64,000 nucleotides of DNA from an uncultured bacterium (lineage in GTDB: Bacteria > Acidobacteriota > Thermoanaerobaculia > Multivoradales > J023), in the NCBI GenBank assembly GCA_965366625.1, contig CBDUGP010000003.1, positions 50,549-114,548 of the forward strand, read 5' to 3'. How positions within the stretch are numbered: the stretch's first letter is position 1; each line of letters begins with the position of its first letter. Positions 10,844 to 56,837 of this stretch are shown piece by piece. Below the pieces are notes generated by a model. That model had not been told where the DNA came from. It did not search any database and saw nothing but the letters and a program-made list of their open reading frames with translations. The position numbers and the translations under genes were made by a program.

Positions 10844-10919
<76 letters not shown>

Positions 10920-10957
10920 TCAGTCGGTGATTCCCCGGAATTGCGGGAAGATTTCGT

Positions 10958-11043
10958 GGAGGTGTGGCCGAGTGGACAAAGGCAGCAGACTGTAAATCTG
11001 CCCGCGAATGCGTACGGTGGTTCGAATCCACCCGCCTCCACCA
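10958..11043 (+). tRNA. tRNA-Tyr (anticodon GTA)
   Basis: 86-nt with long variable arm; anticodon loop ACTGTAAATC; TTCGAAT T-loop; encoded CCA. Confidence 0.9.
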
Positions 11044-11094
11044 ATAATTTCAAGCGGCTGCCAGCCGTCGACGGCTGGTTGGATTGGCCGAAAT

Positions 11095-11169
11095 GCGGGA
11101 GTAACTCAGGGGTAGAGTCACAGCCTTCCAAGCTGTTGGTCGCGGGTTCGAATCCCGTCTCCCGCTCCA
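11095..11169 (+). tRNA. tRNA-Gly (anticodon TCC)
   Basis: 75-nt GCGGGAGTAACTCAGGGGTAGAG...; anticodon loop CTTCCAA; TTCGAAT T-loop; encoded CCA. Confidence 0.9.
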
Positions 11170-11377
11170 TCTTTGCGAGTTAGAGGCGAGCTGGCGATAG
11201 CCCGTTCGCAGCTCACCGTAGACATGCGCGGCACTCTTTTGGTAGGGTCGCCGCCCTCTGCGTAGCTGTGAACTCAACGGCGTCGGTTTAGCCCGACTCT
11301 CCACAGAGTTCACGATTTGAAGAAAGTTTTCGGTAAGGCACGGCGTAGCCGTCCACCGGAGAGGTGTCAAGTTTCAA

Positions 11378-11452
<75 letters not shown>

Positions 11453-11551
11453 TGAAACTCTAGGTCGATCTACCTAGGAACCCTGTTTAGAACACCATCC
11501 CGAGCGATCCATGTAATTGTGGTGCCGCTCTTGAGGAGGCGTCTGAAGGTC

Positions 11552-12736
11552 ATGGCCAAAGAAAAGTTCGAGCGGAATAAGCCGCACGTCAACATCGGTA
11601 CTATTGGTCACGTCGACCACGGAAAGACCACCCTGACCGCTGCGATCACCAAGGTGCTCGCAGACAAAGGTCTGGCTGACTTTACCGCGTTCGACAACAT
11701 CGATAAGGCGCCGGAAGAGCGTGAGCGTGGAATTACGATCGCCACGGCCCATGTGGAGTATGAGACGGAAAACCGTCACTATGCCCACGTGGATTGCCCG
11801 GGCCACGCCGACTACGTGAAGAACATGATCACCGGTGCCGCCCAGATGGACGGCGCGATCCTGGTCGTGTCTGCCGCGGACGGTCCAATGCCGCAGACCC
11901 GCGAGCACATCTTGTTGGCTCGCCAGGTCGGTGTTCCGGCGTTGGTTGTGTTCATGAACAAATGCGACATGGTCGACGATGAGGAGTTGTTGGAGCTGGT
12001 GGAGATGGAGCTGCGTGAGCTGCTGTCGTCTTACGAGTATCCCGGCGACGATATCCCGGTGATTCGCGGCTCGGCGCTCAACGCGCTGAACGGCGAGGGT
12101 GATTGGGACAACAACATCATGGAACTCATGGGTGCAGTCGACGACTACATTCCAGAGCCCGAGCGTGTGTTGGATCAAGACTTCCTGATGCCGATCGAGG
12201 ATATCTTCTCGATTCAGGGTCGCGGTACGGTAGTTACGGGTCGCATCGAACGCGGCATCGTCAAGGTCGGTGAGACGGTCGAAATCGTTGGAATCCGCGA
12301 CACGACGAAAACTACCGTGACCGGCGTCGAGATGTTCCGCAAGTTGCTGGACGAGGGTCGCGCAGGCGACAATGTCGGCATCTTGCTGCGTGGCACGAAG
12401 AAAGACGACGTGGAACGTGGGCAAGTGCTCGCGAAGCCGGGTTCGATCAATCCTCACACGAAGTTCAAGGGCGAGGTGTACGTGCTGACGAAGGAAGAGG
12501 GTGGTCGTCACACTCCGTTCTTCAACGGCTATCGTCCCCAGTTCTATTTCCGCACGACAGATGTGACGGGTTCTTCGGCTTTGCCCGAAGGCACCGAGAT
12601 GGTGATGCCCGGAGACAACGTAAATATGTCGGTGGAGCTGATCGCTCCAATCGCAATGGAGAAGGGTGTTCGCTTCGCCATTCGCGAGGGTGGTCGCACC
12701 ATCGGTGCGGGCACTGTGACCGAGATCGTCGAATAA
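11552..12736 (+). CDS. tuf: elongation factor Tu (copy 1)
   Basis: 394-aa EF-Tu ([22 protein letters not shown]); ATG 11552; protein identical to copy 2 at 28944..30128. Confidence 0.95.
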
Positions 12737-12838
12737 GGTTGACGCCTGAACCTCGACGTTTTTCCCGCTTCCGCGACATGGACGCGGTAAGCACGTGCCC
12801 GAGGGCTCCGATAGGACCTTCGGGCATCCAAGTTATGT

Positions 12839-12914
12839 ACGGCAGTAGCTCAATTGGTAGAGCACCGGTCTCCAAAACCGGCGGTTGCGGGTTCAAGTCC
12901 CTCCTGCCGTGCCA
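12839..12914 (+). tRNA. tRNA-Trp (anticodon CCA)
   Basis: 76-nt ACGGCAGTAGCTCAATTGGTAGAGC...; anticodon loop CTCCAAA; one C-U mismatch in T-stem; classic tuf-tRNATrp-secE-nusG arrangement. Confidence 0.8.
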
Positions 12915-15963: not shown

Positions 15964-16316
15964 GAGGCCGTCCTCCATCGGGGCGGTCTCTTTCGAGCAT
16001 TGCGAGACACCGAAACGACCATGTTCCTCAAAACCGCGGCATTGCCGCGGGAGGGACATGGTGTCTTCTATTCTGGAAAGCCGATAGCCACCTACATGCA
16101 TAGTCGCCCCCGAAGAAGGTGAGCTCTTGAAGGATCGCAGCCTCGACTGCCTGGCTAGGTGGGTGAGGACTCGGCAAATGCCCTGCCCACCCTACGAGCT
16201 ATTGACTACAGCACTCCGCCCGAGTCCGGTGAAGGATGACTCGCCGAGTCGTCCCAGGTTTATTCCTACCCGTCCAAGCGGCGCCAAGCTCTTGCCGAAA
16301 GGAGCGTAGAGATTCT

Positions 16317-19300
16317 ATGAGCGAAGGGATCCAAACGCCAATCGCGCCACGCGAAGACTTCTCGCAGATTGAGACCACCCTGCCGATCCCAAATTTGATC
16401 GACGTGCAGCGGCGGTCTTATGAGCGTTTTCTGCAGATGAACCTGTTGCCCGAAGAACGGGGCAACCATGGTCTGCAAGCAGTCTTTACCAGCATCTTCC
16501 CCTTCTCTGATTTCCGGGAGACCTGTTCCCTGGATTTCGTGAAATACACTATCGGTGATTGGCAATGCAAATGCGGAACCCTGCAAGGTCTCGAATACCT
16601 GCGCATGGATTGTTCCAATTGCGGAGCCAAGATCATGACCGACCATCCTCTGGAAGAGGTCGTGTCGTGTCCTGAATGTGGTGCCGACAACAAGAATCGC
16701 GTCGTCCGCTGTGACATCTGTGGCGGCCCTGTCGAGCTACAGTTGAAGTACTCGATTTCGGAATGCCAAGAGCGTGGAATGACCTTCGCGGTGCCGCTCA
16801 AGGTGACATTCCGGCTCTTTGTTTACGACAAGGATCCGGAGACCGGAACGCGCATGATGCGCGATGCGAAAGAAGAAGAGGTCTACTTCGGTGAAATCCC
16901 GTTGATGACCGAGTACGGCACCTTCGTCATCAACGGTACTGAGCGGGTGATCGTCAGTCAGCTACACCGTAGCCCGGGCGTTTTCTTCACCAAGGACGGT
17001 AAGCGCACCTTCCTATCTAAAATTATTCCTTACCGCGGGTCTTGGGTCGAATTCGAATACGACCAAAAAGAGGTGCTTTCGGTCCGTATCGACCGCAAGC
17101 GCAAATTCCACGGCACGGTTTTCCTGCGGGCGTTGGGCCTCGAGTCCAACGAGGCAATTCTGCGCCAATTCTATGTCTCGGTGGGTTTGTCGATCCTAGG
17201 TGAGGGCCGGTACAAGCTCAACGCACCCTTCAAGGTTATCGAGCAAGAGCGTTTGCGTGATCGCTCCAGTCGCGGTGTCCGTCGCCACTACCAAATCTTT
17301 GCCGGAATTTCGATTCCGAAGGAGAAGGCGGATGAGATGGGCGCCGAGGACAACATCGAGCAAGACGTCTCCATGGCGGAACTCGAAAGGGCCTATTTCA
17401 TCGCTGACGTGGTGGACTTGGAGACCGGTGAAATTCTCTTCGAGGCCAACGATCTGGTCCCGGAAGATTTGGAGACTCGCCTCGACGGCCGTGACACCAC
17501 GGATCTGGAGGTCTTTTTCCCGGATTGGGAGCTGACCGGCAATCTCTTGACCAACACCTTGACCAAGGATCAAACGCGGAATTCCAAAGAAGCGTTGATG
17601 GAGATTTATCGCCGGATGCGTCCCGGAGATCCTCCTACCCTTGAGAGTGCTCGGTCACTGTTCTACGGCATGTTCTTCGATGCCAAGCGCTACGACTTCT
17701 CGCGTGTCGGCCGGTTCAAGTTCAACATTAAGCTCGACACCGAAGTTCCGGTGGAGCAGAAGACCCTCTCTGCCGACGACTTCTACCGTGTGATCGAGTA
17801 CTTGCTCCGACTGCACAAAGACATCGGCCGGGTCGACGACATCGACAACCTCGGTAACCGTCGTGTTCGAGCCGTGGGTGAGCTGTTGGAGAACCAATTC
17901 CGCATTGGTCTGGTTCGCATGGAAAGGGCCATCAAGGAAAAGATGTCCGTGCATCAGGACATCGACTCCGCTATGCCTCACGATTTGATCAACTCTAAGC
18001 CGGTAATTGCCGCGATCAAAGAGTTCTTCGGCTCGTCGCAGCTGTCTCAGTTCATGGATCAGACCAATCCCTTGTCGGAGGTGACCCACAAACGCCGTCT
18101 CTCCGCTCTGGGACCGGGTGGTCTCTCCCGTGAGCGGGCCGGCTTCGAGGTGCGTGACGTTCACGCCTCCCACTACGGTCGAATCTGCCCGATTGAGACC
18201 CCTGAGGGACCGAACATCGGCTTGATTTCTTCCCTGGCAACCTTCGCTCGCATCAACGATTACGGCTTTATCGAGAGTCCGTATAAGTTGGTGCAAGGCG
18301 GCCGGGTCTTGGATCACTTCCGGGTGGTTCGTACCGGCGGCTCGAATAAGAGGTTGGGACAGGTGCTCACCGGTGACGACCTGAAAGAGGTCAACGGTCA
18401 GCTGAAGAAGGACGGCAAGCGGCTGATCGAGGTCGAGCCTCACGCCTTCTACCTGACCGCATGGGAAGAAGAGAAATACGTCATCGCTCAGGCGAATGCC
18501 ACCGTCGACGAAAACGGTTGGTTCCATGACGAGCGAGTGATCGCCCGGTCCGGGGGTGATTTCATCACCGTTGAACGCGAGCGCGTGGAATACATGGATA
18601 TCAGCCCGAAGCAGTTGGTTTCGGTGGCAGCGGCGCTGATTCCTTTCCTTGAGCATGATGACGCCAACCGGGCGCTCATGGGCTCCAACATGCAGCGCCA
18701 AGCCGTGCCTTTGTTGCGAAGTGACTCGCCGGTGGTAGGTACGGGGCTCGAAGGCACGGTAGCTCGGGATTCCGGTGCCGTGGTCAGCGTTCGTCGAGCG
18801 GGCATGGTCGATCTGGTCGACGCGGAGCGCATCATCGTGCGCGTCGAGGCCGAGGACGATCAAACCGGTGAGGCGAAGGACTTCGGTGCTGATATCTACC
18901 AGCTGACGAAGTTCCGTCGGTCGAACCAAAACACTTGCATCAACCAAAAGCCCATCGTCAAAGAAGGGCAGAGGGTGAGCAAGGGTGATGTGCTGGCGGA
19001 CGGCCCCTGTACTGAACTCGGTGAACTCGCTCTGGGTCGCAACGTGCTGGTGGCGTTTATGCCTTGGCGTGGATACAACTTCGAGGATGCGATTTTGATC
19101 TCCGAGAAGATGGTCAAGGAGGACTACTACACCTCTATCCATATCGAGGAATTCGAAATTGAAGCTCGGGATACCAAGTTGGGACCGGAAGAAGTAACCC
19201 GCGACATCCCCAATGTGTCCGAGGCTGCGCTCAAGGACCTCGACGAGTCGGGTATCGTTCGGATCGGCGCCAACGTCAAAGCGGGCGATATCTTGGTCGG

Positions 19301-20570
19301 CAAGGTCACGCCGAAGGGCGAGACCCAGCTGACGCCTGAAGAAAAGCTGTTGCGCGCCATCTTCGGTGAAAAAGCCGGTGACGTTCGCGACGCCTCCCTG
19401 AAGGTTCCGCCCGGCATCGATGGCACGGTAGTAGACGTCAAGATCTTCTCGCGCAAGGGCGTGGAGAAGGATCAACGTGCGCTCGAGATCGAGGATGCGG
19501 AAATCTCCCGGATGAAGAAAAACATCAAGGATGAGATTCGCATTCTGACCGAAGAGCGGAACAAGAAGATTCGCGACCTGCTCGACGGCCACGAAGCTAT
19601 GGCTGATGTGGTCAATCGGGACGGTGAGACCGTGCTTCAAAAAGGTGACAAGGTCAGCCATGACGCCTTGATGAAGCTAAATCGCCAAGAGATTCTTCGT
19701 CTGCCTCTCAAGGGCAACTCGGTCCACGAGCAGGTAGAGAAGGTCTATCGCAAGACCGACTCCCACATCGATGTCCTGCACAAGGTCAACGAGGAACGGG
19801 TGGCGCTGTTGCAAAAAGGCGACGAGCTACCCCCGGGCGTGATCAAGTTGGTGAAAGTCTTCGTCGCCATGAAGCGTAAGCTCCAGGTGGGCGACAAGAT
19901 GGCCGGACGTCACGGTAACAAAGGTGTGATCTCGCGGATTCTTCCCGAGGAAGACATGCCTTACCTGCCCGACGGCACGCCAGTAGAGATCGTGCTCAAC
20001 CCCTTGGGTGTTCCCAGTCGTATGAACGTTGGGCAGATCTTGGAAACCCATCTCGGTTGGGCGGGTATGGCCCTAGGGGTGAAATTCGCCACACCGGTCT
20101 TCGACGGCGCTAGCGAGGAATCCTTGAAGGGATTCTTGGTTCAAGCGGGTTTGCCGACTTCTGGAAAAACCCAGCTGTATGACGGCATGACCGGTGAGCA
20201 GCTGGAGAACCAAGTCACCGTCGGATACATCTATATGTTGAAGTTGTCTCATTTGGTAGACGACAAGATTCACGCTCGTTCCATCGGGCCGTACTCGTTG
20301 ATTACCCAGCAACCATTGGGCGGTAAAGCGCAATTCGGTGGTCAGCGTTTCGGTGAGATGGAGGTCTGGGCCCTAGAAGCCTACGGCGCGGCGTACACTC
20401 TTCAAGAGTTGCTCACCGTCAAATCGGATGATGTCGAAGGCCGTTCCAAGGTCTATGAGTCCATCGTGAAGGGAGCAGTTCCGGACGATCCGGGTCTCCC
20501 CGAATCGTTCAACGTGTTGGTACGTGAGCTTCAAAGCTTGTGCCTTGACGTCGAGCTCTTGCAGGCCTGA
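16317..20570 (+). CDS. rpoB: DNA-directed RNA polymerase subunit beta (with Cys-rich insertion near N-terminus)
   Basis: 1417-aa RpoB (ATG 16317, GGAG RBS); conserved blocks throughout; ~66-aa insertion with four CxxC/CxC pairs at residues ~82-147. Confidence 0.95.
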
Positions 20571-20601
20571 TCCGGATATTCGAAAATCGAAGGAGGCACC
20601 T

Positions 20602-23600
20602 TTGCAGCCAGTCAACTTTTTCGAGAAGCCCCAGTCGTTGAAAGATTTCAACGCGATCCGGATCTCTGTCGCATCACCTGAAAAGATCGGTGCGTGGAGC
20701 TACGGTGAGGTAACGAAAGCAGAAACCATCAACTACCGCACCTTCAAACCGGAGCGGGACGGTCTCTTCTGCGCCAAAATTTTCGGTCCGATCACGGACT
20801 GGGAATGCTTGTGCGGAAAATACAAACGCATGAAACACCGCGGTGTGGTGTGCGACAAATGTGGAGTCGAGGTGACTCGCTCCAAAGTTCGCCGTGAGCG
20901 GATGGGTCACATCCAACTCGCCAGCCCGGTCTCCCATGTTTGGTTCTTCAAGGGCCTGCCGAGTCGCATCGGCCATTTGTTGGACCTCTCTCTGCGGGAC
21001 CTGGAGCGGATTCTCTACTTTGAAAGCTACGTCGTCATCGATCCCGGTGATACGGAGCTGAAAGAGAACGAGCTGCTCTCCGAAGAGCGTTATCGCGAGC
21101 TACGGGACGAGTACGGTGAGGATGCTTTCGAGGCTCGCATGGGCGCGGAGGCGATCAAAGATCTGCTGTCACGCATCGACCTTGACGAGCTGGCGGAAGA
21201 GCTACGTATCGTCATGAAAACCGATACGAGCCAGATCCGTCGCCTCAAGGCCGCCAAACGTCTTAAAGTAATCGACGCCTTCCGTCGCTCCGGTCATCGC
21301 CCGGAGTGGATGATCCTGGAAGTGATTCCGGTCATTCCGCCGGAGCTTCGGCCGTTGGTGCCTTTGGACGGTGGCCGTTTTGCCACTTCGGACTTGAACG
21401 ACCTATACCGACGGGTCATCAACCGAAACAATCGCTTGAAGAAACTGCTCGAGCTACGTGCGCCCGAAGTCATCGTGCGCAATGAGAAGCGCATGCTTCA
21501 AGAGGCGGTGGACGCGCTGTTCGACAATGGTCGTCGGGGCCGCGTGCTCAAGGGATCCAACAATCGACCTTTGAAATCGTTGTCCGACACCCTCAAGGGC
21601 AAGCAGGGGCGTTTCCGACAAAACCTGTTGGGCAAACGTGTCGATTACTCCGGTCGTTCCGTGATCGTCGTCGGTCCGGAGCTGCGCCTGAGCCAATGTG
21701 GTTTGCCCAAGAAGATGGCCCTGGAGCTGTTCAAACCGTTCATTTATAACCGTCTCGAGGATAAGGGTTTGGTGGGCACCATCAAGGCCGCTAAAGAGAT
21801 GGTTGAGCGAGAAGAAGACGCCGTTTGGGACGCCTTAGAAGAAGTGATTCAGGATCACCCGGTGTTGCTCAATCGCGCACCTACCCTGCATCGCCTCGGG
21901 ATTCAAGCGTTCCAGCCGACCCTGATCGAAGGTAAAGCGATTCAGATCCATCCGTTGGTTTGTGCGGCGTTCAACGCCGATTTCGACGGTGATCAGATGG
22001 CGGTCCACGTGCCGCTGTCGCCGAAGGCACAAATCGAATCCAAGATTCTAATGTTGGCTTCGAACAACCTTCTGTCACCGGCCAACGGCAAGCCGTTGGC
22101 GGTTCCCAGTCAAGATTTGGTCTTGGGTGGTTATTACCTAACCCTGGAAAAAACTGGATCCCTGGGCGAGGGCCGGCTCTTCCCGGACTTCGACTCGGTG
22201 CTTTTGGCGCTGCACGCCGAAGATGTCGAGACCCAGACTCGAATCAAGGTTCGCTACACGGGTGATCTGATCGATCTGACCAAGCAGTACAACGATCAAG
22301 ACGTAGTTCACGCCGAAATGGAAGACGTGCGCAACACCTTGATCGACACCACAGTCGGTCGCGTGATTTTCAATATGCAGCTGCCCGACGAGATGCCGTT
22401 CATCAACGGTTTGCTCAAGAAGAAGGGCTTGCAGAATTTGGTGAGCTACTCGTTCATCCGTTTCGGTAACGACAAGACCGTGACGATGCTCGACGAAATG
22501 AAGGAGATCTCCTTCTTCTACGCCACCAAGGCCGGTATTTCCATCGGCATTGACGACATGGTTGTGCCGTCGACGAAGATCGAGATTATCGACACCGCCC
22601 GTAACGAGGTGGTGGAGATCGAGAAGCAGCGCACCGCGGGTGTGATCACCGCCGGCGAGCGCCACAACAAAATCATCGATATCTGGCACCGTGTGACCGA
22701 GAACGTCTCCGAGGAAATGTTCAAGGAGATGTCGAGAGAAGAGCAAATCAGCAACGTCTTCAATCCGATTCGCGTGATGGCAGATTCGGGCGCCCGTGGC
22801 TCTCGTGAGCAGGTGCGCCAGTTGGCCGGTATGCGTGGTTTGATGTCGAAACCTTCTGGTGAGGTGATCGAAACGCCGATTACCTCCAATTTCCGCGAAG
22901 GCTTGACGGTGTTGCAGTACTTCATTTCCACCCATGGCGCTCGAAAGGGTTTGGCGGATACTGCGTTGAAAACCGCGGACTCCGGTTACTTGACCCGCCG
23001 CTTGGTGGACGTGGCCCAGGACGTGATCGTCTCTGAGGACGACTGTGGCACCATCGACGGTATTTACGTGTCGGCGATCATGGAGGGTGGAGACATTCTC
23101 GAGCCGTTGCGCGATCGCATCGTCGGTCGGGTGAGCCAGGAAGAGATCTACGATCCCATGACCGGAGAGCTACTCCTGGGTCTGGCCGAGGAGATCACCG
23201 TCGAGATGGGGGCGAAGGTCCAAGAGGCCGGCATCGAGCGGGTGAAAATCCGGTCGGTGCTCACCTGTGAGTCGCGCCGGGGCGTCTGCATCAAATGTTA
23301 CGGCCGCAACCTGGCCACTGGTAAGACGGTCGACATTGGTGAGGCTGTTGGCGTTATCGCTGCACAGTCGATCGGTGAGCCGGGAACCCAGCTGACCATG
23401 CGTACCTTCCACTATGGTGGTACCGCAAGCCGCGTCTCGGAGGAGTCGAAGCACGCTTCGCGCAATGCCGGTACGGTGAAGTTCATCAACGTGTCTACCG
23501 TCGATTCCAAAGACGGCGCCTTGGTGGTCGTCAACCGTAACGGCAAGATCGTGTTGATGGACCCCAAGGGTCGTGAACTCGAGCGCTACGCAGTGACTTA

Positions 23601-48312: not shown

Positions 48313-51300
48313 TCAAGGGGTGTCAGGGGTGTCTTTCAGCATTGGGTCCTGCAGCAAATCCCGGGAACAGTCCGGGCACACGCCATGGGTGAAGGCGGCC
48401 TCGGAATGTTGATCTATATATTGTTCGATGTCTTCCCAATACCCCTCGTCATCACGGATCTTCTTGCAGCATGAACAGATCGGGAGAAGACCGCCCAACA
48501 CTTTGATTTGGGAAAGTTTCTCTTGTACCTGGGCTGCCATTCGCCGATACGCGAAGACCAGCTCGAGATGGGGGCGAAGGCGCGTGACGAGTTCATGGTG
48601 GCCGATGGGTTTGGGCAGGTAGTCGTTGGCACCCAGTGCCAAGCCTTTCTGGGTGTCCTCCGCCTTGGTCTTGGCACTGAGAAAGATGATCGGCAACTGC
48701 CAGAATGAGAATTTGGATCGTAGCTCCCGACAGACTTCATATCCTGAAACTTCGGGCATCATGATGTCCAGCAGCACCAGATCGAATTCTTGTTTTGCGA
48801 TTACGTCCAGGGCCTCCTTGCCGTGGGTGGCACTGGTGACCCGGAAGTCGAAAATGGAGAGGTAGCTGGTCAGAATCAGCAAATTGGTGGGCTCATCATC
48901 GACGGCGAGAATTCGTGCGTGTTTTGCCTCTTCGGAGAGCTGGAGATCGGCAAAAGAATTAGAGCCCATCTGTCGGTTTCGCGATTCCTGCAGCGGTCGA
49001 ACATTGAAGGTTTCTAGGCGCCTTTGCGCAGCAGCGGCGAGGTGCGAGCGTGGCGGCATTTGATCGGCGAGAGTCCCGGCTCTCGATGGCTCTGAGCGAG
49101 CTGTTTGCTCTCTTTGGCCTGAATACACTGGAATCTCGAAGGCAAAAGTCGAGCCTTGTCCCGGACTCGAAGTGACGGCCAAAGAACTGCCGTGCAGCTG
49201 GACGAGGCGATTTGCGATCGTCAACCCCAATCCGGTGCCGCTGTGGGAGCGGATGTCAGAGCCGTCGGCCTGCTCGAAAGCCTGAAGTATTCGCTCAACT
49301 TCTGAGGTTGCGATGCCTACTCCAGAGTCACTGATCTCGATCCGCAACCGTGGGCTCGGGAGGCAAGTCTCATCAGACCCTTGAGTTTGCTTGGGCTTCG
49401 GGCTGGTGGGAGTTGTCGTCGACTGGACCCGAACCTGAACAAAACCGGCATCGGTGAACTTGATTCCGTTCTCCACTAGGTTGAAAACGACTTGGAAGAG
49501 TCGATTTTCGTCCGCGAAAATCGGTGGCAGGTCTTGGGGCACCTCCGTGGTTAAGTGCAGTCCTTTTTGTTGAGCTGCAGGACGGGTCAGGGCCACGACC
49601 TCCTCCAGAATCGATTCCAGTCGACATTGTCTCGGATGAAGCCGGAAGCCATCGTGGCGAATGTTCGAAAAATCGAGAACAGCTTCGACTAAACGGCTGA
49701 GACGATGACCACTGGCGGCGATCATGGAGAGGTCGAGCAGGGCTTCGGCGTGGATCGGCCCGCGCATGCCGTCGATCAACCCCTCTGCCAAGCCGGTGAT
49801 GCCGTAGAGAGGAGTTCTGAGTTCATGGGAGGTGTTGGCAATGAATTCGTCTTTTTGGCGTTCTGCTGCCCGTAGCCTTTGATTGATGGAGCGCTCTCGG
49901 TTGTATCTTTGCTGAGACCAATAGAGCGACGCTGCAACAAGAGCGAGTACAAGAATCGAGTAAAGGCCGTAGGCGGCTGGGCTTCGCCATGGTGCTGGGG
50001 CGACCAGGATCGCCATCGTCGCTGCCTCCTCACTCCAGACCCCATCCGGGCTTCGGGCTTTAACTTGGAATCGGTAACGACCGGGATCGATGTTGGTGTA
50101 GCGGGCTGACCTGTGCTCGGCATCGGTTTCGATCCAGTGCTCGTCGAACCCTTCCAGTCGATAGAGGAATCGGACCTTTTTGGGGTTGGCGAAGTGGAGA
50201 GCGGTAAAGCCGATCTCAAAGGTCCTGTGAAGATGGTTGAGGGCCAAGCTTTCGGTGCCGGAGAGGGCGTGTTGAAGGGGCGAGCCCGGCACACCGATCT
50301 CAACGGGAGCGCCGTTTAGGAGTAGGTGGGTCAGCACGATGGCCGGTGGATGAGGGCTAAATCGAAGATTGCTCGGATCGAAGTAGGTCAATCCACGGTT
50401 GCCCCCGAAGATCATCTCCCCGGTGCTGGACCTCAAGGCAGTTCCGGTAAAAAACACATTGTTGTGGAGACCGTCTTCGATATCGAAGTTGTGAAAAACT
50501 CCGGCTTCAGGATCGAAATGGCTGATTCCGTGCTGAGTGCTGAGCCACAGAGTTGATCTGTCGTCTTCGAGCACTCCGGCGATGGTGCCGCTCGGCAATC
50601 CCTCTCCGACGTTCCAACGTTGGATCTTAGTGTCGTCTTCGCCCCGCTTGCGGATTAATCCGCCGTCGCGCAGGCCGATCCAGAGGTCATTCCTGCTGTC
50701 TTGGTAGAGGGAGAAGACTTCGTCTTGGATATCCGACAAATTTGCCGCCGGCCGGCGAATCCGAAGATCGCGGTCGAGGATCCTCAAACCGCGCGTGGTA
50801 CCGATCCAAATCCTGTCTTTGTGGTCGAGGCTGAGAGCCAGAATTTGACCGGTTTCGAATCGCCGCCGCTCCCTGCCGCTGTCGTCGAGCAGGGAAAGGC
50901 CCGCGAGACTGCCCATCCACAGTCTGTCTTCAGGGTCTTCGATCAGAACTCGGATTCCCTTGGGAGCGGTTGGGCTGAGGTCGGTCGGAGACAGCTGTGC
51001 GGTGATCTGGTCGAATTGGAATAGGCCTTGGGCCGCACCCAACCAGAGCTTCTTGCGACTACGATCAAAGAAAATTGCTTTGATCGAGGTAATGGGGCCA
51101 TCGTCGTCGCTGAGAGGAAAGCGCTCGAATGCTTGACTGGCTGGATGCCAAACGGTTAGCCAGTCGTTGCCGGCGATCCACCAGCGACCGTCAGGCGTCT
51201 CACCGAGCGCGCTGACGTTGGCACTGGCCAAGCCCCAGCGCGAGTCGAGGCTGCGGCGCAAAGTCCTAAATTGCTGCCGATCGAGATCAGTGAGATCCAG

Positions 51301-52335
51301 GCCGTTGCGGGTGCAGGACCAGAGAATGCCGGAGCGGTCGATGTACAGACCGTAGACAGACTTGCTGCTGGGGCCGGTGGGATCCCCATCTCGCATTTCC
51401 ACATGCTGGGCCGAATCCGGCTCCTCGCCGGAAATTGCACCGACCATACGGGCCAGACCTTCTGAGTTGCTGCCGATCCAGAGGTCGTCTCCGTGGCTCA
51501 TCAGGCTGTGAATGTCACCATTTATCGGGCGGGCGTAGAGACGGAATAGGGGAGGCCCTCGGCCCGGGGCAGTGGACCGATAGAGAGAGCCGTTAAAGGA
51601 CCCTATCCACAGATTGCCGAGCGGATCTCGATAGCTGATGGTGGGTCGGTTCTTTTCTCTGGAGAGGCCGGCTGTGTTCCCATGAAGAAAGGGAGAATCG
51701 ATGGATTCTGTGGCGGAGGTGGTTGGGTCGAAAATAAAAAGGCGCCCGTCGGAGGTGGCGAGCAGCAATCCGCTGTCTAAGGCTTCCAAAGTCAGCGGTT
51801 GGAAAGTGGGGAGGGCTACATCTTCGCTACCGAGATCCACCGTGATCGATTCGAAGCGGCGAGCTTGGCGGTTGAGCCGAAGAAGACCTCGATCCGTCAG
51901 GGCCCACAGATCCGACCCAAGCTCACGGAAACGGATGCCGTCGGGAGACAAGCTCAGCGAAAGCGGGATGCGTTCGAATCGTTCGAGCGCAGGGTCGTAG
52001 CGGTTGAGGCCGCGGTTCCTGGACGCGAGCCACAATGAGCCGTTCCGATCTTCGAACGCTCCAAAAGTCTCGTTGGCGCTGACGGTCGTCGGGTCTGCTG
52101 GATCGTGGGCAAAGGTCGTCAGGTGAGAGCCGTCAAAACGCTGTAGCCCACCCTCGGTGCTTATCCAAATGAAACCCTGTCGGTCCTGGGTCAAGTTCCA
52201 GACGGTGCTGTGGGCGAGCCCGTCGTCAGTGCTCAGGTGTCTGAATTGGAGGAATTCGGCTGCTGCGCTGGAGGTCGATACCAGGCAGAGTAAACTCAGA
52301 AAAGCGATGCGGTTTCGTTTGACTTGGTGTCCCAC
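48313..52335 (-). CDS. hybrid sensor histidine kinase/response regulator with periplasmic beta-propeller sensor and Cys-rich C-terminal module
   Basis: signal peptide; repeated propeller/Y_Y_Y-like repeats; TM; HisKA (SHELRTPL) and HATPase (GTGLGLTIANRLV); REC (ILAVDDEPTN ... DLVLLDIMMP ... LSAK); C-terminal LPICSCCKKIRDDEGYW ... HGVCPDC. Confidence 0.8.
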   Translation of the reverse strand: MGHQVKRNRIAFLSLLCLVSTSSAAAEFLQFRHLSTDDGLAHSTVWNLTQDRQGFIWISTEGGLQRFDGSHLTTFAHDPADPTTVSANETFGAFEDRNGSLWLASRNRGLNRYDPALERFERIPLSLSLSPDGIRFRELGSDLWALTDRGLLRLNRQARRFESITVDLGSEDVALPTFQPLTLEALDSGLLLATSDGRLFIFDPTTSATESIDSPFLHGNTAGLSREKNRPTISYRDPLGNLWIGSFNGSLYRSTAPGRGPPLFRLYARPINGDIHSLMSHGDDLWIGSNSEGLARMVGAISGEEPDSAQHVEMRDGDPTGPSSKSVYGLYIDRSGILWSCTRNGLDLTDLDRQQFRTLRRSLDSRWGLASANVSALGETPDGRWWIAGNDWLTVWHPASQAFERFPLSDDDGPITSIKAIFFDRSRKKLWLGAAQGLFQFDQITAQLSPTDLSPTAPKGIRVLIEDPEDRLWMGSLAGLSLLDDSGRERRRFETGQILALSLDHKDRIWIGTTRGLRILDRDLRIRRPAANLSDIQDEVFSLYQDSRNDLWIGLRDGGLIRKRGEDDTKIQRWNVGEGLPSGTIAGVLEDDRSTLWLSTQHGISHFDPEAGVFHNFDIEDGLHNNVFFTGTALRSSTGEMIFGGNRGLTYFDPSNLRFSPHPPAIVLTHLLLNGAPVEIGVPGSPLQHALSGTESLALNHLHRTFEIGFTALHFANPKKVRFLYRLEGFDEHWIETDAEHRSARYTNIDPGRYRFQVKARSPDGVWSEEAATMAILVAPAPWRSPAAYGLYSILVLALVAASLYWSQQRYNRERSINQRLRAAERQKDEFIANTSHELRTPLYGITGLAEGLIDGMRGPIHAEALLDLSMIAASGHRLSRLVEAVLDFSNIRHDGFRLHPRQCRLESILEEVVALTRPAAQQKGLHLTTEVPQDLPPIFADENRLFQVVFNLVENGIKFTDAGFVQVRVQSTTTPTSPKPKQTQGSDETCLPSPRLRIEISDSGVGIATSEVERILQAFEQADGSDIRSHSGTGLGLTIANRLVQLHGSSLAVTSSPGQGSTFAFEIPVYSGQREQTARSEPSRAGTLADQMPPRSHLAAAAQRRLETFNVRPLQESRNRQMGSNSFADLQLSEEAKHARILAVDDEPTNLLILTSYLSIFDFRVTSATHGKEALDVIAKQEFDLVLLDIMMPEVSGYEVCRELRSKFSFWQLPIIFLSAKTKAEDTQKGLALGANDYLPKPIGHHELVTRLRPHLELVFAYRRMAAQVQEKLSQIKVLGGLLPICSCCKKIRDDEGYWEDIEQYIDQHSEAAFTHGVCPDCSRDLLQDPMLKDTPDTP

Positions 52336-54182: not shown

Positions 54183-54197
54183 CGGGGAGTGATCGGA

Positions 54198-56837
54198 ATG
54201 GCCAAGCAATCCAAGGCGAAGAAATTAACCCCGGGCGTTCCGGCCCAGGGCGGTGCCCAAACCGCCAAAAAGCCGAGAGGCTCGGGAGCGGTCAAGCTGG
54301 CGCTGATGCTCGTGCTTTTGGTGGCCTTGGTGGCAGGGGTCATCGCCGGAAGCACCACTTGGGCCACCGCGACCGCAAGGGCGGAAACCGCCGGTAAGGC
54401 CATCGATAAGATTCTTAACGGCAGCAACAGGGCTCTCTCGATTCTCCAGCGGCAGCGCTATCTACGACTGAACCTGATTTCCCGTATTTTTCGGACGGAT
54501 CAGGTGCTGACCTCGTATTTAGTTGCCGCCGCCCAGGCCCGAGACGAGGCCGCAATCTTGGCATCGGTGGAGGAATACCAAGACCTACTGACTTTTGATT
54601 TGGCGGTGGTGCTGGATCGCAACGGCGTGGTTTTAACCCGCACCGACGATCGGTCAGCGAGTGGCGAGGACTTGGCCGCGACCCCGTTGGTGGCCGTCGC
54701 CCTCGAAGAGAGCAAGGCGTCAGGGGTGTGGCAGCAGAATGACCAGCTCTACAATGCGCTCGCCGAGCCGCTAGTGCGCCAATTCGAGCTCGTGGGATAT
54801 ATCGCCGTCGCTTATTCAATCAACAACACCCTAGCGGCTGATATCAAGCGCACGGGCGGCGCGGAGATTGTTTTCCTTGCCGAATCTGGGGTTGGGCCTG
54901 CACCTGTCGCGTCGACCCTCGATGACGGCATGTCGCAGGAGCTTGTGGAGGCACTTCGAAAACAAGGGGATGTGCTCGGTTTGGTGATGGAGGAGGGGGA
55001 TGTCGTCGACCGGGTCGAGCTGGAGTTCGGTGGTGAAAAGTGGACGGCGTCCTTGGCACCGTTGAGGGATGCCGCAGGCGGCTCGGTGGGAGCTGCCATT
55101 GCCCTGACTTCCTTGGGTGACACCCGGCAAAGCTTCAACAACATCCAGAAGGCCACTTTGGTCGCGGGCGGACTCTCTCTCCTGGTGGGAGCCATTTTGG
55201 CGTTCGCCTTGGCCAAATGGGTTTACCGGCCCTTTACTCGCCTGGCCGACGCCGTAACCCAAGGGGTCCAAGGCCATTGGGATGTCCAAATGCCGACCGG
55301 CAGTGGGGACGCCAAACGCATCTCGGAAGCGGTGAGAGATCTCTTCACCCAGCTCAGGGAGAAGGCCGCGGTGGAATTCGTGGTCGGCCGGGTGTCTCGG
55401 CTGCTGCCCGAACCCGCGAAAGAGAGCGCTCAAGGCGTGGCTAAGGCCCAGCATCTTTGTGTGGTCGGGGTTGAGATGCGCCGCTACGCCGATCCTAAGG
55501 TCGGCTACGACGCCGAGGAGAATATGGCCCGTCTGGATCGTGACGTCCAAAAGATTTCCACCTCCACGCGCACCCAAAAAGGTGAGGTGGTGTCGATGTT
55601 CGGGCATCGAGTTTTGCTCAGCTTCGAAGGTGAGCATTGCACCTGGCGGGCCCTGTGCGCGGCCACCGAGATCATGCTCACCCTGTCGGAACGGGACAGC
55701 GTGTTCGACGAACCCAGCCCGCCGGTGGTTGCCCTTTCTAGTGGCCCGATGATCAACGGCACCATCTCGTCCGGCCTGGTGGTGGCGGGTGTTCCGGTTC
55801 AGATTCTCGAAAGCTTGATGCGTGAGGCGTCACCCGGCGGGCTTTACTTCTCGAAACAGGTTTATGCGGAGTTGGGCGAACTCTTCCAGCGGGCTCAGGT
55901 GCAAGTGAAGGGGCAGCGGGGAATCCTCAGTCCGCAACCTCTGTATCTGGTCGACGCCGAATCGGCGAGTCGAATGACCGGAGTCCAAGCCTTGACCGAC
56001 GGTGGGGACGGAGGCGAGGGACGAGGTCTTTCAGATCTGCGGCGCGGTGTGCTGCTGGCGGGTCGCTTCGACATGCTCGACGAGCTGGGCGCGGGTCGGA
56101 TGGGAATTGTTTGGAAGGCCCAAGATCGCGACTTGGGCGATTTGGTCAGTCTCAAGATGCTGCGTCCGGAAGTGATGCAAGACGCCGCGCTCTTCGAACG
56201 GTTGAAGAGGGCGGTGGCCAAGGCGCGCTCGATCCGCCACCCCAACGTCTTGAGCGTCTTGGATTTCGGCGAGGCCGAGCGCCTGCCGTATATCGAAATG
56301 GAATTTGCCCGCGGATTCACATTGGCCTATCTCCTGGAGCAAGCACGCCAAGTGCCGGTGGTGGCCGGGGTCCGATTCGCGCGCGAAATCGCCCGTGGGC
56401 TGGCCGCCGCCCACAATCAGCAGCTCATGCACAGCGGGCTCAAACCGGAGAACATCCTAATCGACACCTTGGGTTTGGTGAAGGTGATGGACTTTGGTCT
56501 GGGTATGCCGGTAAGAGCCGGGGCCGCCGTGGAAGCGCCTGGATACCTCGCTCCCGAGCAGCTGGAGGCGCGCGAGCCCGATTCCCGCGCCGATTTCTTC
56601 AGCTTTGGGGCGGTGGTGTATTCCATGTTGACCGGAAAACTGCCTTACCCGGGGTCCACCTCGGACGAGATCCGTCGCAAGATGGCCGAAGGCGGTCCTG
56701 AGGTCCCCACCTCACTAGTGGCTGAGATCCCACCCAAACTGGAAGAGATTCTCTTGAAATGCCTCCAGATCACACCGGACCAACGATACGCGTCGGCCGA
56801 CGAACTCGTGGCGGATTTGGAAGACATCTCCATCTAG
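54198..56837 (+). CDS. membrane receptor: extracytoplasmic sensor-TM-HAMP-degenerate cyclase-homology domain-Ser/Thr pseudokinase
   Basis: two TM segments flanking ~300-aa sensor; cyclase-like motifs with catalytic residues substituted (GEVVSMFG, VQILESLMREASPGGLYFS); kinase domain with GxGxxG, VSLK, DFG, APE but HRD replaced by HSG (MHSGLKPEN); alternative GTG start 54189. Confidence 0.7.
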   Translation: MAKQSKAKKLTPGVPAQGGAQTAKKPRGSGAVKLALMLVLLVALVAGVIAGSTTWATATARAETAGKAIDKILNGSNRALSILQRQRYLRLNLISRIFRTDQVLTSYLVAAAQARDEAAILASVEEYQDLLTFDLAVVLDRNGVVLTRTDDRSASGEDLAATPLVAVALEESKASGVWQQNDQLYNALAEPLVRQFELVGYIAVAYSINNTLAADIKRTGGAEIVFLAESGVGPAPVASTLDDGMSQELVEALRKQGDVLGLVMEEGDVVDRVELEFGGEKWTASLAPLRDAAGGSVGAAIALTSLGDTRQSFNNIQKATLVAGGLSLLVGAILAFALAKWVYRPFTRLADAVTQGVQGHWDVQMPTGSGDAKRISEAVRDLFTQLREKAAVEFVVGRVSRLLPEPAKESAQGVAKAQHLCVVGVEMRRYADPKVGYDAEENMARLDRDVQKISTSTRTQKGEVVSMFGHRVLLSFEGEHCTWRALCAATEIMLTLSERDSVFDEPSPPVVALSSGPMINGTISSGLVVAGVPVQILESLMREASPGGLYFSKQVYAELGELFQRAQVQVKGQRGILSPQPLYLVDAESASRMTGVQALTDGGDGGEGRGLSDLRRGVLLAGRFDMLDELGAGRMGIVWKAQDRDLGDLVSLKMLRPEVMQDAALFERLKRAVAKARSIRHPNVLSVLDFGEAERLPYIEMEFARGFTLAYLLEQARQVPVVAGVRFAREIARGLAAAHNQQLMHSGLKPENILIDTLGLVKVMDFGLGMPVRAGAAVEAPGYLAPEQLEAREPDSRADFFSFGAVVYSMLTGKLPYPGSTSDEIRRKMAEGGPEVPTSLVAEIPPKLEEILLKCLQITPDQRYASADELVADLEDISI

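Follow-up and report, generated by a model that had tools for sequence, protein, structure and literature searches.

Background

Lineage-specific inserts in RNA polymerase (RNAP) shape the regulation of this enzyme in different bacteria, and known examples include SI1 and SI3 of Escherichia coli, Si3 of cyanobacteria, and beta'-i1 of actinobacteria. We know of no structural study of the transcription machinery of the Acidobacteriota, a dominant phylum of soils and sediments. Here, we describe an insertion with eight cysteines in the N-terminal part of RpoB, the beta subunit of RNAP, which is encoded on a stretch of 64,000 nucleotides (contig CBDUGP010000003.1 of assembly GCA_965366625.1; the whole stretch is hereafter called the window) from an uncultured bacterium of the acidobacterial class Thermoanaerobaculia. 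The insertion is fixed across the Acidobacteriota, is probably metal-dependent, and sits at a site outside those listed in a 2024 survey of such domains.

Among the closest described counterparts are the beta inserts beta-i4 (SI1), beta-i9 (SI2), and beta-i11, which, like the insertion studied here, are vertically inherited, clade-specific domains in surface loops of universal beta domains. The inserts i1 to i3 are reportedly numbered N-terminal to i4 in the 2010 catalogue of Lane and Darst. A 2024 survey of the domains inserted into beta and beta' (BEAN/HABAS) gives five lineage-specific sites in beta, none of them in the N-terminal part of beta1/uD1, places the majority of beta inserts in the BEAN (BBM2) fold, and makes no mention of zinc (PMC11515920). 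The Acidobacteria were included in the catalogue of Lane and Darst and have been reported to carry the beta inserts i4, i9, and i11 (Opalka 2010, PMC2939025), which the length likewise suggests.

The insertion in the window differs from these known inserts in its location in the N-terminal part of beta1/uD1 and in its predicted fold of metal-stabilised ribbons, whereas the known ones occupy other sites and have the BBM2/BEAN fold. It is absent from every solved RNAP structure, as judged by alignment to all solved bacterial beta subunits, and its fold neighbours are exclusively small zinc domains, its predicted fold being neither BBM2/BEAN nor SBHM. Both results agree with an initial annotation, made by a model from the sequence alone, which had called the module structurally new and neither SBHM nor BBM2. 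A full-text literature search, with Lane and Darst 2010 and Iyer and Aravind 2012 outside its reach, returned no description of the insertion, and a bare sequence-level listing in Lane and Darst 2010 is plausible. We class the module among the lineage-specific RNAP inserts, set apart by an unusual, probably metal-dependent fold and by an undescribed site, and not as something categorically new.

Boundaries and location of the insertion

When compared with every solved bacterial beta subunit, the RpoB of the window (residues counted from the likely start M28, see below) is matched in two pieces, between which residues 82-142 face only two to three target residues. The insertion proper is therefore 61 residues long (16560-16742), with a net gain of about 58-59 residues relative to an E. 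coli-type beta. Translation of 16560-16757 yields exactly the peptide quoted in the initial annotation, which had estimated an insertion of about 66 residues; the terminal LKYSI of that peptide turned out to be conserved flank. The four cysteine pairs that it described, one CxC and three CxxC, are present as CKC(G), CSNC(G), CPEC(G), and CDIC(G), with a glycine directly after each of the four knuckles. In the alignment to solved beta subunits, the insertion maps to the beta1/protrusion domain (Pfam Rpb2_1 region), where it occupies the tip of the first hairpin at about G64-V67 of E. coli beta, and not to the beta2 lobe, where it had initially been placed. The equivalent loop of yeast Rpb2 (about residues 71-89) is a disordered surface loop, which we use as a lead only. 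The GC content of the insertion (0.557) is close to that of the whole gene (0.561), and its composition is unremarkable.

The features on which the following sections draw are, in window coordinates:

16317..20570, + strand: rpoB coding sequence, 1417 residues from the likely start M28; TIGR02013, 1807 bits
16524..16559, + strand: stalk strand on the upstream side of the host hairpin, conserved beta1/protrusion core, aligning to the E. coli-type 'LQYVSYRLGE' of PDB chains
16560..16742, + strand: eight-cysteine insertion, W82-Q142, 61 residues, unaligned against all solved beta subunits
16560..16577, + strand: knuckle K1 (from W82), W-Q-C84-K-C86-G; W82, C84, and C86 invariant in 71 aligned loci
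16611..16625, + strand: knuckle K2, C99-S-N-C102-G; invariant in the 71 loci; AlphaFold2 hairpin strands 96-98 and 105-107
16668..16682, + strand: knuckle K3, C118-P-E-C121-G; putative inner metal site with K2
16710..16724, + strand: knuckle K4, C132-D-I-C135-G; invariant in the 71 loci; putative outer metal site with K1
16743..16778, + strand: stalk on the downstream side and helix of the host domain, aligning to '(P)KYDVEEC' and 'FDVKEC' of PDB chains
20806..20862, + strand: comparator, the canonical beta' zinc-binding domain in rpoC, located by regular expression

Predicted fold

Structure prediction with AlphaFold2 of RpoB residues 1-623 from a 73-sequence alignment modelled the insertion with a predicted local distance difference test score (pLDDT) of 78-89, and prediction of the insertion alone from 80 sequences reached a mean pLDDT of 85.6 (overall range up to about 91). 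Assignment of secondary structure with DSSP gave four equivalent tight hairpins, whose 6-residue knuckle loops are closed by bridges 83/90, 98/105, 117/124, and 131/138. The stalk under the knuckles consists of two strands, 81-83 paired with 140-142, which extend the host hairpin: the upstream stalk strand (70-79) runs on into 81-83, and the downstream strand 140-142 is followed by a helix at 147-153. The model thus has the paired CxxC knuckles in beta-hairpin turns by which a zinc beta-ribbon is recognised.

In a Foldseek search of the PDB, the best match of the insertion had an E-value of 0.31, and every neighbour was a small zinc domain (Csl4, LysW, A12.2, RBR domains, the beta' zinc-binding domain, RanBP2 fingers, and ribosomal ribbons), at scores typical for such tiny domains; with the 623-residue model, only RNAP beta chains were recovered. 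Among 20 diverse relatives, the Pfam family DZR (PF12773) matched 19 at E ≤ 0.01 (best E 2.8e-8), Zn_Ribbon_1 matched 14, and DUF7577 matched 10, while the copy in the window scored 19.3-20.9 bits against DZR, whose gathering score is 27.3. Assignment of the window copy to one specific Pfam family was dropped, since all of its matches lie below the gathering score. A rubredoxin affiliation is not supported, with only RUBY_RBDX matching at an E-value of 0.04 and no rubredoxin among the fold matches.

A zinc beta-ribbon is well supported as the fold class of the insertion by these profiles and models, and the double zinc-ribbon proposed initially held up as to fold class in the profile searches and the model of the RpoB N-terminus that had been suggested for checking it; the arrangement of the ribbons is probably nested and not tandem, as discussed below. 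A hydrophobic core is nearly absent from the modelled insertion, whose cohesion probably comes from two tetrahedral Cys4 metal sites, most likely occupied by zinc. Compared with the zinc beta-ribbon superfamily (DZR, eS27, LysW, and eL40-type ribbons), it is embedded in RpoB and likely consists of one ribbon nested in a second Cys4 clasp. Zinc ribbons also serve as rigid surface or adaptor elements, the part proposed here, in archaeal and eukaryotic RNAPs (Rpb12/RpoP, Rpb9/A12.2, and the C-terminal zinc site of Rpb2). Weak profile or fold matches link the insertion to Rpb12, RpoP, and A12.2, but those ribbons are separate subunits or C-terminal elements, and these comparisons gave no sign of homology or of an equivalent position.

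Distribution and conservation

Far from being a peculiarity of this genome, the insertion marks the phylum Acidobacteriota as a whole, Aminicenantia included, as a synapomorphy. A degenerate-pattern scan over one genome per GTDB species confirmed it in at least 596 genomes representing as many species, some of the copies lying on multi-Mb contigs or chromosomes. The matches listed (80 loci) are labelled, with two exceptions given below, as Thermoanaerobaculia, Holophagales, Terriglobia, Bryobacterales, Solibacteraceae, Vicinamibacterales, Acidobacteriaceae, and unclassified Acidobacteriota, and the closest among them were from Thermoanaerobaculia (75-89% identity). A search seeded with the most divergent copy also recovered the eight-cysteine insertion in Blastocatellia and in Candidatus Aminicenantes/Saccharicenans; by their best matches, GCA_942492175.1 and GCA_053994155.1, which carry the most divergent copies, are placed beside the Aminicenantia. 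The insertion is a clean molecular synapomorphy that unites the Aminicenantia with the other Acidobacteriota. When its profile was searched against 1.84 billion cluster representatives, 374 clusters (50% identity) matched at E ≤ 1e-3, most of them RpoB N-terminal fragments with the same flanks and the remainder generic proteins with tandem zinc-ribbon repeats.

All eight cysteines are retained in 80 of the 80 listed loci, which answers the question, raised with the initial annotation, of whether relatives keep them, and in 280 of 304 near-complete copies. The length is nearly fixed, at 80-82 residues from flank to flank across the classes represented by the 80 loci. Apart from the cysteines, W82, G91, L95, R96, G122, and V139 are invariant in the 71 aligned loci, and K85, L89, L92, N125 (99%), N127, G136, P138, and L141 are conserved to at least 94%. 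Mean pairwise identity is 63% in the insertion versus 74-75% in the flanks, and the ratio of nonsynonymous to synonymous substitution rates (dN/dS) is 0.10 versus 0.05. The insertion is under strong purifying selection.

A few carriers have labels from elsewhere. Two of the 80 listed loci are labelled 'Hyphomicrobiales' (L036, JBLMXB010000142.1) and 'uncultured bacterium' (L051), so that each of the 80 is labelled, or most plausibly read, as Acidobacteriota. The former and two further metagenome-assembled genomes (MAGs), labelled 'Candidatus Rokuibacteriota' (P0053) and 'Candidatus Dormibacteraeota' (P0432), contain an RpoB of the Acidobacteriota type with the insertion and with high identity to Acidobacteriota copies, and contig mis-binning is the likely cause. 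The insertion could be used as a contamination flag.

Pairing of the knuckles

Sequence similarity backs each of the adjacent pairs K1-K2, K2-K3, and K3-K4, and in profile searches K2-K3 resembles eS27 and LysW. Natural variation is more discriminating. Among the 304 near-complete copies, the sole recurrent departure from CCCCCCCC is SSCCCCDC, found in 10 sequences from NCBI MAGs labelled Thermoanaerobaculia, from JGI, and from several SRA runs. In this clade both cysteines of K1 are replaced by serine and C132 by aspartate, by which half of K4 is lost, while K2 and K3 are intact. A real sub-lineage with these replacements, reading ...GDWKSRSG...TIDEVCG..., comprises P0112, P0116, P0119, P0150, P0444, P0446, P0447, and P0449, the named members being MAGs labelled Thermoanaerobaculia. 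On the most parsimonious reading, the clade represents a natural knockout in which one site is gone and the other intact.

Because the clade loses K1 and half of K4 and keeps K2 and K3, nested pairing is favoured, with K1 and K4 probably forming an outer site and K2 and K3 an inner one. K2 and K3 (C99, C102, C118, and C121) would then make up a distal inner ribbon like those of eS27 and LysW, and K1 and K4 (C84, C86, C132, and C135) a proximal clasp by which the excursion is stapled, at its base, to the stalk. The module as proposed would bring two extra zinc ions per beta subunit, and one in the SSCCCCDC clade.

Interpretation of the insertion

The best explanation, which we hold with moderate confidence, is that of a phylum-wide, lineage-specific insertion domain of beta made of nested ribbons stapled by metal at two sites, which presents a rigid knob on the protrusion for interaction. 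The 61-residue excursion leaves the tip of the first beta1/protrusion hairpin and would form a solvent-exposed surface element without a catalytic part. The protrusion flanks upstream DNA and also docks CarD-RID. Mfd-RID is moreover anchored on it and Mfd-TD2 contacts it (PMC7864632), and it is the secondary site for the NGN domain of NusG (PMC9963633). We suggest tentatively that the metal-stapled knob is a lineage-specific interaction surface, with a protein, such as a transcription factor, as a likelier partner than nucleic acid. The conserved polar residues are few (K85, R96, N125, and N127). Such a module offers a concrete target for cryo-electron microscopy and for partner hunting on the protrusion.

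Several points count against this explanation or parts of it. Every match of the window copy in the Pfam scan is under its gathering threshold. The aspartate at position 132 in the SSCCCCDC clade can itself ligate zinc, and the argument from joint loss is not airtight. The sequence similarities also fit a sequential pairing, K1-K2 being like the beta' zinc-binding domain and K3-K4 having RanBP2 spacing. Lastly, the module's net charge varies between -5 and +5 from lineage to lineage, which argues against a conserved nucleic-acid-binding surface.

The sequential pairing can draw on the beta' zinc-binding domain. As had been noted initially, rpoC retains its canonical zinc sites, which lie at residues 95-113 of its open reading frame (CLCG-x12-CDKC) and at C841/C915/C922/C925. 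The segment IGDWQCKCG-x12-CSNCGAKI of rpoB (16554-16637) aligns without gaps to ITDWECLCG-x12-CDKCGVEV of rpoC (20806-20862), so that K1-K2 and the beta' domain have identical CxC-x12-CxxC spacing and a common D-W-[EQ]-C-x-C-G motif. This likeness goes beyond the cysteine pattern: an unbiased search of PDB sequences with the profile matched positions 8-41 only to the zinc-binding domains of beta' and gamma (E 0.003-0.3), BLASTP against the window's own RpoC gave 32% identity over 28 ungapped residues, and hhalign of K1-K2 with the beta' domain gave a probability of 96.4% and a score of 37.1, while shuffles with the cysteine and glycine knuckle columns fixed scored 21.2 +/- 3.9 and only 1 of 200 reached 37.1. 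K3-K4 in turn has the exact C-x2-C-x3-N-x6-C-x2-C spacing of RanBP2/NZF fingers (PF00641), including the conserved Asn (N125), with an E-value of 0.0027 to the RBM10 zinc finger and 22.7 bits for Zn_ribbon_RanBP, and the half formed by K1-K2 is net positive throughout (+1 to +4). It may thus be asked whether the insertion consists of two sequential ribbons, a copy of the beta' zinc-binding domain and a RanBP2-like finger, that contact upstream or promoter DNA or nascent RNA. We think this fairly unlikely. With sequential pairing, both sites would be damaged in the SSCCCCDC clade while an orphaned K2 stayed under selection; conserved leucines (L89, L92, and L95) stand in place of the basic nucleic-acid-binding residues of the beta' domain (KYKRxKHRG); the charge of the module as a whole is not conserved; and the signature Trp of RanBP2-type fingers is missing, with scores of 22.7-23.2 bits against a 27-bit threshold, so that membership in that family is not supported. 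K3 and K4 probably contribute to separate metal sites, as in the nested arrangement, unlike the knuckles of a RanBP2/NZF finger.

In the favoured nested explanation, the beta' zinc-binding domain (E. coli C70/C72/C85/C88) is comparable to the insertion as a Cys4 zinc module, with zinc predicted in our case, of the same spacing in a large RNAP subunit. It differs in being located at the RNA-exit/clamp side of beta', with two knuckles, whereas the insertion has four and lies on the protrusion of beta, where natural variants suggest that K1 and K2 share no metal. The similarity may reflect intra-operon duplication or convergence, and with nesting it could be either a remnant of origin or convergent. 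A stronger version holds that the module arose at least in part by copying of the beta' domain from the neighbouring rpoC into rpoB. The RNAP of this entire, globally abundant phylum would then bear two additional metal centres on its beta protrusion, in a module that forms a previously unrecognised site for binding nascent RNA, upstream DNA, or a factor specific to the Acidobacteriota and that may modulate the docking of NusG, Mfd, or CarD. This scenario is improbable in our estimation; if true, bacterial beta would be a metalloprotein in the Acidobacteriota. Either way, the resemblance raises the question of how RNAP domains are recruited.

Three other accounts leave the interaction surface out or replace it. 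The module could be structural filler, maintained by selection for stabilising or shielding the protrusion in assembly or stability, with no specific partner; the conserved residues other than cysteine are mostly glycines and hydrophobic residues (G87, L89, G91, L92, L95, G103, G122, G136, P138, V139, and L141), the surface charge drifts among lineages, and one clade tolerates the loss of a presumed site. The nearly fixed length, the dN/dS of 0.10, and the conservation of K85, R96, N125, and N127 to 94-100%, unusual for a functionless decoration, tell against it, and we give this account little credence. Zn-thiolate switches are an established regulatory principle, and eight clustered thiols on an exposed module, in knuckles of a C-P-x-C-G type that also occurs in rubredoxins (hence the weak RUBY_RBDX match), might suggest a redox or metal sensor whose Cys4 sites, Zn-thiolate or rubredoxin-like with iron, are oxidised or demetallated under stress and so alter RNAP. 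Thermoanaerobaculia and Aminicenantia include anaerobes and other classes of the phylum include aerobes, but the module is equally conserved in both, and we found no specific similarity to known redox-switch domains; a switch is very unlikely. Finally, an artefact, be it a misassembly, a read-through across a frameshift, or a mobile or intein-like insertion of recent date, has next to no chance of accounting for the segment. A few public sequences do have in-frame deletions or truncations in or near it (P0009, P0026, P0033, P0127, P0014, P0015, and P0024), but those with deletions come from assemblies of raw reads and are all singletons, and P0452, a cluster mate of P0127 at 90% identity, has the insertion. 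The in-frame recurrence of the segment across at least 596 independent genomes, the cysteines kept in 80 of 80 loci, the normal composition, and a dN/dS indicating strong purifying selection rule out an artefact or recent mobile DNA, including the misassembly that the initial annotation had named as a way for its claim to fail.

Gene, operon setting, and aberrant copies

The open reading frame (ORF) that encloses the insertion spans 16236-20570 (1444 codons) and belongs to RpoB by its score of 1806.8 bits against TIGR02013 (NCBIfam rpoB; cut-off 801). Its in-frame ATG at 16236 lies 27 codons ahead of M28. M28 (16317) is the likely start, because a Shine-Dalgarno sequence, AAAGGAG, is found 8 nt upstream of 16317 and because the N-termini of homologues lie about 10-20 residues ahead of the 'R-x-DFS-x-I' motif, i.e., around M28; the upstream extension (16236-16316) is probably untranslated. 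The gene is part of a canonical tuf-nusG-rplKAJL-rpoBC cluster, with nusG, rplK, rplA, rplJ, and rplL upstream and rpoC and fusA downstream. In the region 10844-12914 further upstream, tRNAs in the order Thr(TGT)-Tyr-Gly(TCC)-Thr(GGT) are clustered ahead of tuf (11519-12736) and tRNA-Trp, and nusG comes next, which is the usual arrangement ahead of the rplKAJL-rpoBC operon.

In the region 20524-20610, the mechanically called ORF of rpoC begins with a GTG at 20524 and overlaps the end of rpoB by 47 nt. A likelier start is preceded by GAAGGAGG at about 20589-20596 and uses the TTG at 20602; the match to TIGR02386 starts from residue 44 of the ORF. Past the ribosomal protein region, the window holds two large ORFs, at 48313-52335 (- strand, 1340 residues) and at 54189-56837 (+ strand, 882 residues).

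Among the aberrant public copies, P0009, P0026, P0033, and P0127, all from raw SRA assemblies, show in-frame loss of K2 and K3, of K1 and K2, or of the whole insertion, with breakpoints at short repeated motifs (KCG.../CGK and KYSI...KYSI). They are probably assembly or sequencing artefacts, given that all are singletons and that the cluster mate of P0127 carries the full insertion. In another group, rpoB is split into two ORFs or shortened within or just after the insertion (L081, 3001-6387, on a 1.13-Mb contig of GCA_942492175.1; P0014, P0015, and P0024 on contigs of 138-211 kb), which is probably due to frameshift errors. Our first homologue search favoured short proteins and was hence dominated by such split-rpoB fragments. 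The public annotation of these proteins is otherwise plainly 'DNA-directed RNA polymerase subunit beta', with one RpoB N-terminal fragment (P0121, JGI contig, 759 residues) carrying the source name 'ribosomal protein S27AE', presumably a mis-annotation set off by the zinc ribbons of the insertion, in particular the inner one.

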